A DNA stretch of 46,909 nt from Calditrichota bacterium (lineage in GTDB: Bacteria > Zhuqueibacterota > Zhuqueibacteria > JANLFK01 > Oleimicrobiaceae): positions 1 through 46,909 of the forward strand of contig JACIZP010000257.1 of NCBI GenBank assembly GCA_014359355.1, given 5' to 3'. The position numbers and the translations under genes were made by a program. A model generated the notes under the pieces. The model did not search any database and was not told where the DNA came from. It saw nothing but the letters and a program-made list of their open reading frames with translations. Below, piece after piece: positions 44,167-46,823 of this stretch. How positions within the stretch are numbered: the stretch's first letter is position 1; the number at the start of each line of letters is the position of its first letter.

Positions 44167-44230
44167 GTCTAACCCGCCGCTGCAGCCGACGCCGCCTGCG
44201 GCGGCGCCGCTCAGTCGCAGGCCGTTAGCG
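44167..44230 (+). repeat. integron attC-like recombination site (64 bp), copy 1
   Basis: GTCTAAC (RYYYAAC-type inverse core) ...CAGCCGACGCCGCC-TGC-GGCGGCGCCGCTC... GTTAGCG (GTT core). An imperfect long hairpin with a bulged A, same length and layout as copy 2. Confidence 0.6.
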
Positions 44231-44261
44231 GCTTTCTAACAACGAGGGTTCAAAGCAGGCG

Positions 44262-44579
44262 ATGTCAAAGAAGGTTTACGAGCGAGCCATCACCAGTTGG
44301 CCCGAAGAAGATCGGCCACGAGAAAAGCTACTCAAGTACGGCGCGCACATCTTGAGCAACGACGAGCTTTTGGCCATTCTCATCCGCACGGGCGTGGAAG
44401 GCTCAAGCGCCGTTGACCTGGGCCGCGAACTGCTGCGCCGGTTCAAGACCCTGCGCGCACTCAGCGCCTGCGATCCAGCCGAATTGCGCGAGATCAAGGG
44501 CCTGAGCACCGCCAAGATCGCCCAGATCAAGGCGGCGGTGGAATTGGGGCGGCGGGCGCTATTTCAGTTTTGCCGATGA
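44262..44579 (+). CDS. RadC/UPF0758 N-terminal (helix-hairpin-helix) fragment lacking the JAB domain
   Basis: WPEEDRPREKLLKYGAHILSNDELLAILIRTGVEGSSAVDLGRELL...LREIKGLSTAKIAQIKAAVELGRRA is collinear with RadC N-termini. The ORF then stops (..LFQFCR*) where the JAB/MPN domain should begin. Confidence 0.65.
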   Translation: MSKKVYERAITSWPEEDRPREKLLKYGAHILSNDELLAILIRTGVEGSSAVDLGRELLRRFKTLRALSACDPAELREIKGLSTAKIAQIKAAVELGRRALFQFCR

Positions 44580-44628
44580 GGGACTGATCGAGGAATATCA
44601 GATGCAGGCTATTCGGTGAGGTTGTCTT

Positions 44629-45819
44629 GTGAACCCAGAACAGTTCCGCAAAAGCACGTCCGGTCAGGTCGTCCGTGTGGGACAGGGTGAGGCTGCTTAT
44701 TGGGCCTTTGTCCCTCATCCGCTGCCGCCGAGTCTGCCGGCGGATTGGGAGTTGACCCGCGCCCTTTCGGAGGCCGACCGCGCCCTGAGCGAACTGGCCG
44801 GTCTGGGGCGCACCATGCCCAATCCCCACTTGCTGATCGGGCCGTTCGTGCGCCGTGAGGCTGTGCTTTCCTCGCGCATCGAGGGCACGCAGGCCAACAT
44901 TGCCGATCTGTACGCTTACGAGGTCGGCCAGTTGCCGTTGCCCGGCCTGGAAGCGCCGCCCGAAGCGGATGTGCGCGAGGTGCTCAACTATGTCAACGCT
45001 CTGGAGTACGGCCTGAAGCGCCTGGAGACCCTGCCGGTCAGCCTGCGCCTGATGCGCGAACTGCACGAACGGCTGCTGGCCGGTGTGCGCGGTGAGCACG
45101 CCACGGCAGGCGAGTTCCGCCGCTCCCAGAACTGGATCGGCCCGCCGGGGTGCACCCTGAACGAGGCCACTTTTGTCCCGCCGCCGGTCCCGCAGATGCA
45201 CGAAGCTCTGGACGCTCTGGAAAAATACTTGCACGGCGACGATGTGTATCCACCACTCTTGCGCCTGGCGCTGGTTCACTATCAGTTCGAGGCCATTCAT
45301 CCCTTCGTGGACGGCAACGGGCGGATTGGGCGTTTGCTTCTGTCGCTATTGCTTGTCCAGTGGAGGCTGTTGCCGCTGCCGTTGCTCTACCTGAGCGCCT
45401 ATTTCTATCGCCACCGCCAGGACTACTATGACCTGCTCTTGGGGGTAAGTGCACGGGGCGCGTGGCGTGATTGGCTGCTCTTTTTCCTGCGCGGCGTGGC
45501 TGAGCAGGCGGGGGATGCCGCAGCGCGCGCCAAGAAACTGCAGGACTTGCAGGAAGAATGGCGTGCCCGCCTGACCCAGGCGCGGACCTCTGTTCTGACT
45601 TTGCGTCTGGCGGATTCGCTTTTTGCCAACCCAATCCTTACGATTCCACAAGCCAAGCGCTTGCTCCAGGTTGGCTCTTATCACAGCGCGCAAAAGAATG
45701 TGGAAAAACTGGTGAGCGCCGGCATCCTGCATCCGGCGGAAGAAGCGGCTTATGGCAAGACGTACATAGCCGCCGAGATTTTGCGCATCATCCACGACGA
45801 GTTTCAAGATACGGGGTAA
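44629..45819 (+). CDS. Fic-family protein (AMPylase-type) with an intrinsic inhibitory helix and C-terminal winged-helix region
   Basis: Canonical HPFVDGNGRIGR active-site motif. N-terminal SSRIEGT matches the (S/T)xxxE(G/N) auto-inhibition motif. 396 aa. GTG start after GGTGAGG. Confidence 0.9.
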   Translation: MNPEQFRKSTSGQVVRVGQGEAAYWAFVPHPLPPSLPADWELTRALSEADRALSELAGLGRTMPNPHLLIGPFVRREAVLSSRIEGTQANIADLYAYEVGQLPLPGLEAPPEADVREVLNYVNALEYGLKRLETLPVSLRLMRELHERLLAGVRGEHATAGEFRRSQNWIGPPGCTLNEATFVPPPVPQMHEALDALEKYLHGDDVYPPLLRLALVHYQFEAIHPFVDGNGRIGRLLLSLLLVQWRLLPLPLLYLSAYFYRHRQDYYDLLLGVSARGAWRDWLLFFLRGVAEQAGDAAARAKKLQDLQEEWRARLTQARTSVLTLRLADSLFANPILTIPQAKRLLQVGSYHSAQKNVEKLVSAGILHPAEEAAYGKTYIAAEILRIIHDEFQDTG

Positions 45820-45849
45820 AATTGCACTTTTTGGTCGAAAAGTGCAATT
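45820..45849. repeat. perfect 12-bp inverted repeat immediately after the Fic stop codon
   Basis: AATTGCACTTTT-TGGTCG-AAAAGTGCAATT. A third AATTGCAC box lies at 45861..45868. Confidence 0.6.
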
Positions 45850-46046
45850 CTGGCCCGTTGAATTGCACAAAAGTACAAATCTGGATTCGCAAAGGATACC
45901 AAGTAGGATCCCTTCGTGGCCTTAGTGTCCTTCGTGGTTTTTGATTCCGGCTTGTCTGGGTTAGGAGTGGGTCATTTGTTTCTGCCCTGGATGCCGCACT
46001 GGGGGAGAATGGTCAGCAATAGACACGGTGCGATTCATAATGGGCC

Positions 46047-46110
46047 GCATAACAAGCGGCTGGAGCCGACGCCGCCTTCGGCGGCGCGGCTCAGCCGCTA
46101 GACGTTAGGC
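46047..46110 (+). repeat. integron attC-like recombination site (64 bp), copy 2
   Basis: GCATAAC...AGCGGCT-G-GAGCCG-A-CGCCGCC-TTC-GGCGGCGCGGCTC-AGCCGCT...GTTAGGC. AAC/GTT ends pair, 7-bp and 12-bp helices, and bulged G46062 and A46069 on the left arm. The core is nearly identical to the aadA-type attC core (AAGCCGACGCCGC-TTCG-CGGCGCGGCTT) as I recall it. Confidence 0.7.
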
Positions 46111-46129
46111 GCATTACGGTTCCAGGAGA

Positions 46130-46567
46130 ATGAGCCTCCCGTTTTGGAAGAACCTGTGGAACGCGCTCGTAGCTTCAGAGGAGCAGCTTTCGGAGGCCGG
46201 CGTTCGAGGCTTGCTGGCACATCTGCCACAAGTCGACACGGAGACCCTGCAGTTTTTCGAGCCTCCCTGTCGGGTCATGATCGGACATGAAGTTTTTGTT
46301 CCGCATGTTCTCGGCGAGTTTCGCGATCCTTCCGTCGCCATCGTCTACGGGGAGGGGCGTGGGCACGCGTTCGTGCGCGTGAGCACGGTCGCGAATGTCG
46401 CTGGCAGGCTACCGCCCCATGCTCGGACCCTGGGTCCGCTGGTTCGCGCGCTAGACCACCAAGGCTTTCGCGTGAAAAACATACGGCACTTCGTCTGTGA
46501 AGTGTCGAGCGCCTCGCGAGGCGCTGCAACTGACCGCTATTCCGCTGCGCCCCATAGCGACAGGTAA
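46130..46567 (+). CDS. hypothetical cassette-filling ORF (145 aa)
   Basis: ATG directly after AGGAGA, and the ORF spans almost the whole interval between attC copy 2 and the next GTTAGGC core. Codon usage is unconvincing, and a 63-aa minus-strand ORF (46175..46366) looks at least as coding-like. Confidence 0.35.
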   Translation: MSLPFWKNLWNALVASEEQLSEAGVRGLLAHLPQVDTETLQFFEPPCRVMIGHEVFVPHVLGEFRDPSVAIVYGEGRGHAFVRVSTVANVAGRLPPHARTLGPLVRALDHQGFRVKNIRHFVCEVSSASRGAATDRYSAAPHSDR

Positions 46568-46823
46568 GCTTGGCCGTTAGGCCAAAAGCCGAGGAGGGAT
46601 CCACGAATCGAGCAAGGTGGGAGTAGATTGTTAAGAAGTACTCGGAGCCTATCTGTTTTGGTCGTATTCAAGAATGCGCGACATCATCTAAGTGGCCCGA
46701 GCAAAGAAATCGACGAGGATCTTCCTGTTCCGGAAAACAAAGATGGAAGTAGCGTTGCAGCCATTGGGAGAACTAGGTAAGATTGCAGGGTTCAGAACAT
46801 CGTGATATGCAAAGAGATGTTTC

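Follow-up and report, generated by a model that had tools for sequence, protein, structure and literature searches.

The DNA examined here, referred to as the window, is a stretch of 46,909 nucleotides from contig JACIZP010000257.1 of a Calditrichota bacterium (assembly GCA_014359355.1). Its right-hand end carries, beyond an ornithine aminotransferase (OAT) gene, a series of modules that appear to be integron gene cassettes, unaccompanied in the window by a gene for an integron integrase (intI). Each integron cassette ends in a recombination site, attC, whose bottom strand (here the minus strand) folds into a hairpin when single-stranded, with paired R and L boxes and with extrahelical bases (EHBs) that mark the strand. 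The integrase IntI, a tyrosine recombinase, cuts between the G and the TT of the core GTTRRRY, releases the cassette in circular form and integrates such circles at the attI site. The features of the locus are listed below; el1 and el2 are two 64-bp elements, ORF stands for open reading frame, and loci in other genomes and metagenomes are given L numbers throughout.

43777-43860, plus strand: candidate relic of IntI box II (QGSLGHDEQRTTTVCAHVPRHGARGGKR), with Cys at the position of the catalytic Tyr
44014-44040, plus strand: left junction of the array, at which non-attC sequence (CTCTAAACCACATAAAGAGTA) gives way to the core GTTAGCC, crossover between G and TT at 44034/44035
44035-44224, plus strand: cassette A, a module without an ORF (about 132 nt, 44035-44166) and el1
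44167-44230, plus strand: el1, putative decayed attC of 64 bp; R'' GTCTAAC, R' GTTAGCG, three stem mismatches
44225-46104, plus strand: cassette B, 1880 bp, a two-gene module and el2
44262-44579, plus strand: UPF0758_N gene, 105 aa, stand-alone RadC N-terminal helix-hairpin-helix (Pfam PF20582, E 3.2e-29)
44629-45819, plus strand: fic gene, 396 aa, SoFic-type, with Pfam Fic_N and Fic and the motif HPFVDGNGR
45820-45849, no strand assigned: perfect 12-bp palindrome, AATTGCACTTTT-TGGTCG-AAAAGTGCAATT, directly past the fic stop
46047-46110, plus strand: el2, predicted intact attC of 64 bp; R'' GCATAAC, R' GTTAGGC
46105-46576, plus strand: cassette C, ORF 46130-46567 (145 aa, without known family) and a putative decayed attC
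46511-46582, plus strand: third site, the attC remnant of cassette C; R'' GCCTAAC changed to GCCTCGC, end CTTGGCC-GTTAGGC
46577-46909, plus strand: start of cassette D, 46.8% GC; an ORF from 46824 runs off the window

Recombination sites of the array

Read at the crossover between G and TT, the cassette boundaries lie at 44034/35, 44224/25, 46104/05 and 46576/77. The initial annotation had placed the start of the array at 44167; it begins one cassette further left, at 44035. Homology to the ORF-less module of cassette A starts exactly at 44034, at the GTTAGCC core (44034-44040), the stretch 44034-44210 being 82-88% identical by blastn to a unit repeated in L026, L079 and L100. Cassette B is 89.2% identical in nucleotide sequence to L135 over 44228-45896, and this homology begins at the cassette boundary (44228), directly past the GTTGTGC core of L135; the left boundaries of both cassettes coincide with homology breakpoints to other genomes. 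In other copies of the ORF-less module the right arm of an attC usually stands to the left of GTTAGCC, the exceptions being L143 and the truncated copy in L139. In the window this place is taken by unrelated, non-attC sequence, which marks the left junction of the array and is possibly a remnant of attI.

The two 64-bp elements, first described as attC-type sites from the sequence alone, stand in tandem on the same plus strand as ORFs 44262-45819 and 46130-46567, which bears out the left-to-right cassette polarity proposed at the time. They are identical at 50 of 64 positions and share a central stem, AGCCGACGCCGCC-NNN-GGCGGCGCGGCT, that occurs exactly twice in the 46.9-kb window with up to three mismatches allowed, none being expected by chance (100 shuffles). 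In el2, R'' (7 nt) and R' enclose, from left to right, a spacer of 5 nt and stems of 3, 6 and 7 bp, with an extrahelical G between the first and second stems and an extrahelical A between the second and third. Its R'' and R' pair at six of seven positions, both cores being of the AAC/GTT type, and the third position of R'' is A, not the Y of RYYYAAC. The unpaired bases (G46062 and A46069 in el2, A44189 in el1) all fall in the left ('') arm, as the initial annotation had it. As single-stranded DNA, el2 folds into a near-perfect hairpin, with dG -27.3 for the top and -28.5 for the bottom strand (z = -5.9 and -7.4, respectively; none of 200 shuffles folds as well). El1 shares the layout of el2, but three of its pairs are broken and one is a wobble, and its fold is no better than that of shuffled sequences (z -0.7 and -1.2); by blastn it is up to 90% identical to attC-family sites of other genomes.

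The aadA attC sequence of class 1 integrons to which the initial annotation had likened both elements is borne out: the 61-nt query matches plasmids such as R100 at 100% over positions 3-61, and 1945 of the 2515 matching records are at least 99% identical. El2 agrees with it at 46 of 64 positions and el1 at 45 of 64. With the paradigm attCs of aadA1 and aadA7, el2 shares the R'' and R' cores and the spacer-3 bp-EHB-6 bp-EHB geometry, and the core AGCCGACGCCGC...GCGGCGCGGCT is nearly identical in the window's sites. The differences are of several kinds: the window's sites measure 64 nt against 60 nt, with one extra G-C pair in the apical stem; their L stem, rich in G and C, reaches 6 bp; the top strand has G as its first EHB (bottom strand C), against C in aadA1/aadA7 (bottom strand G); and they lie in an environmental chromosome and not in a mobile resistance integron. 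The geometry of el2 is identical to that of 11 class 1 sites read from plasmid sequences, namely R''(7), spacer 5, 3 bp, EHB, 6 bp, EHB, variable stem, 6 bp, 3 bp, spacer 5-6, R'(7). El2 is also the sole site to pass a rule-based scan that combines R-box pairing with fold energy per nucleotide; the same scan at relaxed thresholds was too noisy in GC-rich DNA and was dropped.

A search of the window against Rfam, at gathering as well as at E-value thresholds, yielded neither an attC family nor any other relevant match, and two covariance models were built. The independent one, R2, was made from seven non-aadA class 1 attCs (aacA4-cr, arr-3, dfrA27, dfrA12, a gcu cassette, dfrA1 and dfrA14), trimmed to conserved ends and joined with N, and serves as a proxy for the IntegronFinder criterion (attC covariance model, E below 1). 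With filters off, its single significant match in the window is el2, at exactly 46047-46110 on the plus strand (27.4 bits, E 3.6e-5); held-out genuine attCs score 46.4 (aadA2), 46.0 (aadA1), 27.1 (gcuF) and 24.1 bits (gcuC). A covariance search without significant matches was one of the two outcomes that the initial annotation had named as refuting it; for el2, the proxy model gave the opposite. Since R2 matches el2 alone in the window, el2 is by independent test a predicted attC.

The second model, R1, describes the environmental family to which both elements belong. A one-genome-per-species scan with the central-stem pattern yielded 114 loci, about half of which are chance matches in GC-rich coding DNA (Streptomyces and other genomes) and not attCs; the R1 alignment comprises 45 distinct sites, el1 being in the training set. 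They form one 64-nt type with an RYYYAAC-like inverse core and a GTTRRRY-like core, in which 88.9% of alignment cells are paired, compared with 29-48% after sliding the partners. Covariation is seen in both the R and the L stems, for example at pair 22/51 (CG 34, GC 6, AU 1), and the first extrahelical base lies one position to the left of that pair. R1 scores differ strongly between strands (83.7 versus 29.3 bits), and the model detects the genuine aadA1 attC of plasmid R100, directly past the aadA1 stop codon and on the correct strand, with 54.3 bits and E 9e-15. El1, as part of the training set, scores 64.5 bits. By its homology to this family and its layout, el1 is a putative decayed member of it.

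The third site is decayed as well. Its core, GCCGTTAGGC, lies where the initial annotation had found it, at 46573-46582, 9 nt past the stop of ORF 46130-46567 and at a drop in GC from 0.61 to 0.47. This core represents the tail end of an attC lost to mutation. No significant hairpin was found upstream of it (fold z about 0), and the alignment with the intact attC of L116, a freshwater-sediment-type metagenome contig, indicates that the attC copy in the window has mutated and that the ORF now extends about 19 codons further, across the attC remnant. On these grounds, and for want of an R1 or R2 match, the site was rejected as an intact attC.

In other genomes the R1 family is found mostly in metagenome-assembled genomes (MAGs) of Chloroflexota/Anaerolineae, and also in Bathyarchaeia, Acidobacteriota, Planctomycetota, Verrucomicrobiota and Desulfobacterota. 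Same-strand arrays are common: of 51 family loci, at least 23 have two to five R1 sites on one strand inside 8 kb; in L003 five family sites are spaced about 1.7 kb apart, and L026, L111 and L031 provide further examples. Searched by tblastn with IntI1 as query, four loci have IntI homologues adjoining family sites: L031 (55% identity to IntI1), L033, on a contig assigned to Bathyarchaeia (49%), L088, where the homologue is interrupted, and L068, where it is partial. Two of the four, L031 and L033, were scanned with the NCBIfam integron integrase profile TIGR02249 and scored 485 and 404 bits (cut-off 265 bits). R2 also matches family arrays beside IntI homologues. In L033 the family attCs and IntI occupy 4074-7087, the assignment to Bathyarchaeia being the binning as annotated, and L002 is without IntI. 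A 402-aa tyrosine recombinase in L116 was considered as an integron integrase and rejected as not being one. Across the family sites (L001-L112) the R'' and R' types are often mismatched, GGCTAAC standing with GTTGGGC and GCCCAAC with GTTAGCC; this would be expected if the part of R' beyond the crossover belongs to the next cassette.

These observations bear on the proposal that the 64-bp elements are repetitive extragenic palindromic (REP)-like or terminator hairpins of the host, unrelated to integrons. GC-rich palindromes behind genes do invite this reading, and el1, taken alone, would not be called an attC. It is nonetheless already contradicted, and we give it practically no weight: the 46.9 kb contain the element just twice, each time in the array, and R1 at its threshold detects no family attC in four relatives, each searched over about 20 kb at the same locus; genome-wide dispersal was what the initial annotation had regarded as the mark of such a repeat. 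Elsewhere the family forms same-strand arrays and adjoins IntI homologues, its scores lie far apart on the two strands, and its model recognizes the aadA1 attC.

Host locus and missing integrase

The OAT beside the array is 91-93% identical to MAG proteins, one of them named Candidatus Oleimicrobiaceae, a family of Candidatus Zhuqueibacterota (formerly KSB1) in the Fibrobacterota-Chlorobiota-Bacteroidota (FCB) group, and a sorting domain of the type IX secretion system at 14582-15790 agrees with an FCB-group host. Judged by these similarities the host is a relative of Candidatus Zhuqueibacterota (KSB1), as the FCB lineage given in the initial annotation implied. Two adjacent tRNA genes (37089-37245, minus strand; Rfam 68.7 and 69.9 bits) are found some 7 kb to the left of the array, and no link to it was seen.

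No intI had been noticed in the window, and none was found by wider searches. A tblastn search with IntI1 at E values up to 100 gave no homologue in the window (best E 0.59), and no intI emerged there when tblastn with IntI1 and with the IntI of L123 was combined with an IntI hidden Markov model (HMM) against all six frames (best E 0.19). The 44 kb to the left of the array are free of intI, and a complete integron, in which an intI with the IntI-specific domain stands beside attI and the cassettes, is not present in the window. In one relative, L123, synteny with the window extends over the genes for OAT (93% identical), a major facilitator superfamily transporter, a beta-lactamase-family protein and a protein of 86 aa. 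Immediately upstream of OAT, in the position and orientation that the array has in the window, L123 carries a 326-aa IntI with 312 bits to TIGR02249 (cut-off 265), full length and 39% identical to IntI1, which reads towards small same-strand ORFs and attCs. The integron of L123 (6924-8658 and 3521-3648) has long attCs, of 128-129 nt, that are unlike el1 and el2; the resident attC type differs from that of the window's cassettes.

Where L123 carries intI, the window has 688 bp of non-coding DNA (43347-44034). Within it lies the window's best six-frame match to a four-sequence IntI HMM, covering profile positions 298-325, in the place and on the strand expected from L123; tblastn aligns the same segment with the L123 IntI at 50% identity over 24 aa. 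It is possibly, on this faint likeness, a relic of an integron-integrase C-terminus. A remnant of intI or attI at the DNA level was sought and rejected, the comparison with L123 and L124 giving only about 40 bp of shared OAT-upstream sequence. A 199-aa open frame (43297-43896, plus strand) extends over the gap together with the box II-like relic and overlaps, on the opposite strand, the start of OAT; Pfam gives no match for it, and it is unlikely to be a gene.

Clusters of attCs that lack an integron integrase (CALINs) are defined by at least two attCs less than 4 kb apart on one strand with no intI in the cluster (PMC4889954). El1 and el2 are 1.8 kb apart on the plus strand; both are family members by homology, and only el2 passes R2. 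We consider, with a probability of about 0.85, that from 44035 rightwards the window covers the proximal part of a cassette array belonging to a chromosomal integron of Candidatus Zhuqueibacterota that has lost its integrase, that is, a CALIN. The initial annotation had left a CALIN-type array and one with a lost platform side by side; the latter is favored because L123 carries an intact intI at the exact locus. The most likely origin of the CALIN is loss of the integrase in situ, which, if the array is real, we hold to be reasonably probable. On this view a deletion at the locus itself would have removed the integrase gene, and the roughly 690 bp of non-coding DNA with its faint box II relic would be what remains; the array, now lacking an integrase, would be frozen and its attCs would decay, el2 being predicted to remain recombinable by an integrase supplied in trans.

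The main alternative to loss in place is that the cassettes never belonged to a resident integron and that an integrase acting in trans inserted them at a secondary site of the attG type (GWT/GNT), a small CALIN thus arising with no integrase of its own. The left junction, a bare G/TT crossover flanked on the left by non-attC sequence, speaks for such an event, and the lack of DNA homology to intI, the weakness of the relic and the empty site in three relatives agree with it; insertions of this kind are efficient and have been proposed as a source of small CALINs and of single attC sites lacking integron integrases (SALINs) (bioRxiv 10.1101/2022.09.11.507474). Yet a full IntI stands in the same position and orientation upstream of OAT in L123, OAT and the first cassette are separated by roughly 690 bp of unexplained non-coding DNA, which contains on the right strand the window's best IntI-like match, and at least four consecutive cassettes are present. 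We regard insertion at an attG-type site as unlikely. Still less probable, to the point of being a slight chance, is an assembly or binning chimera in which the cassettes come from another organism, for example an Anaerolineae bacterium. The cassettes are 82-90% identical to Anaerolineae MAG sequences, the array is at the end of the window, and repeats such as attCs break assemblies; but the junction region (43347-44034) is unique and holds no repeat to cause a mis-join, GC is continuous across the junction, L123 has an integron at the same place, and cross-phylum sharing of cassettes is expected (PMC9668308).

Several points weigh against a CALIN formed by loss of the integrase in place. El1, for which family homology and layout speak, reaches only 7.4 bits with R2, at E 0.25 and in a 501-nt search only, and the third site has no match to R1 or R2 in the window; a strict independent count would give one attC and a SALIN rather than a CALIN. 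Both matches of the relic are weak (E 0.19 and 0.64), and 43430-44034 has no DNA-level homology to the intI of L123. At the OAT site of L124, L155 and L156 no intI and no cassette-like genes are annotated, and the far flank of the L123 array (rpsT and the IMP dehydrogenase gene) differs from that of these three relatives; the history of the locus is not simple, since L123 and the intI-free relatives do not share that flank. Finally, the window ends inside the array, whose size and far boundary lie beyond it, and an integrase could exist elsewhere in the genome.

Cassette contents

The ORF-less module of cassette A is the most unusual item of the locus. Its 44 copies are spread across genome loci and 16 metagenome loci, among them the window copy (44035-44166), L026 (4132-4663), L079 (7 copies), L100 (3489-3628) and L139-L154; at least 12 are on one 145-kb metagenome contig, Ga0208197_1000054. 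Copies usually start with the GTTAGCC core, three different attC types stand behind them, and tandem runs have periods of 196 and 255 bp. In the fold predicted for the module 97% of alignment cells are paired. On the sense strand, many changes affect one partner only and turn a canonical pair into G-U; compensatory change occurs in only two pairs, and single sequences fold no better than shuffles (z -0.9 and -1.3). That the module is a functional non-coding cassette, acting as a structured RNA or as a regulatory or recombination-related DNA element, is a tentative and rather doubtful suggestion. To judge from the distribution of its copies, it multiplies in integron arrays and has spread between arrays of the Anaerolineae type and the FCB-group genome of the window.

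Cassette B carries two genes. The small one had been taken for a truncated radC, a reading that we rejected: the same 105-aa UPF0758_N gene precedes fic in L135-L137, where its length is kept, and it is part of a conserved two-gene module. Stand-alone UPF0758_N genes of 94-105 aa occur in the window and in L135 (2309-2626 and 6501-6785); their immediate downstream neighbour is a SoFic-type gene or, in L135, also an MmeI-like methyltransferase/restriction gene, which suggests that UPF0758_N is a recurring small partner of defence genes. The Fic protein matches PADLOC SoFic (PDLC03963) over its full length (residues 23-389, E 2e-116) and has an N-terminal SxxxEG inhibitory motif, as read from the sequence; its nearest named homologues are 89-90% identical and annotated as Anaerolineae MAGs. 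By profile and motif the gene fits a SoFic-type anti-phage defence gene. SoFic, with which the full-length match, the Fic motif and SxxxEG are shared, is known as a single-gene system, whereas the gene of the window and of L135-L137 is preceded by the conserved 105-aa UPF0758_N gene in one cassette. The palindrome directly behind fic resembles a terminator, and its region also matches L138 in inverted orientation. It is situated in a 227-bp stretch of 48.5% GC between fic and el2. Homology to L135 stops at 45896, and in its right part cassette B varies from genome to genome.

The 145-aa ORF of cassette C has a homologue, P0001, in L116 that is 80% identical and is flanked on both sides by attCs (L116 9828-9895 and 10372-10439). 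A JUMPstart-like Rfam match on the opposite strand within this ORF (46405-46441, minus strand; 19.4 bits, E 0.77, below the gathering score) is most likely due to chance. The 28-aa ORF fragment of cassette D has no Pfam match. By its similarities the cargo, the SoFic-type defence gene included, is of foreign origin.

Relation to known integrons

Like the CALINs described earlier (PMC4889954), the window has same-strand attCs 1.8 kb apart, no intI, cargo of unknown or defence function and decaying attCs. It differs from them in that its origin is traceable, a relative keeping intI at the same locus, and in that only one site passes an independent model; 95% of CALINs have no recognizable intI pseudogene nearby (Cury et al. 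2016, PMC4889954). An inverted integrase arrangement is known from Treponema (PMC4889954), and likewise the intI, cassette ORFs and attC top strands of L123 are all on one strand, an arrangement shared by the candidate relic and the array of the window. Here, in contrast to Treponema, the phylum is Zhuqueibacterota, the window has no working integrase, and the attCs of L123 measure 129 nt and are unlike el1 and el2. Archaeal and cross-domain cassettes have been described (Ghaly et al. 2022, PMC9668308); the family of el1 and el2 is likewise found in contigs assigned to Bathyarchaeia (binning as annotated), together with IntI in L033 and without it in L002, as well as in several bacterial phyla.

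The locus is a well-known kind of element, which would work like any integron array and is probably frozen and decaying, and it leaves the known working of integrons unchanged. What may be new is the phylum, the CALIN origin traceable by synteny and the sharing of cassettes across phyla. KSB1 is not mentioned by Ghaly et al. (2022, PMC9668308), integrons go unmentioned in the paper describing the phylum, and no paper connecting KSB1 with integrons came up in a full-text search; because no integron report for KSB1 was found in this literature search, the window and L123 extend integrons to Candidatus Zhuqueibacterota. The origins of most CALINs are unresolved, and here one relative with a complete integron and three with empty sites support loss of the integrase in place followed by decay of the attCs. 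Integrons stockpile anti-phage systems (bioRxiv 10.1101/2024.07.02.601719), and a SoFic-type gene in a cassette fits this role, defence genes in cassettes being already known. Finally, a cargo 82-90% identical to cassettes of Anaerolineae MAGs, together with the attC family and IntI on a Bathyarchaeia-assigned contig, fits an exchange of cassettes between phyla and domains.

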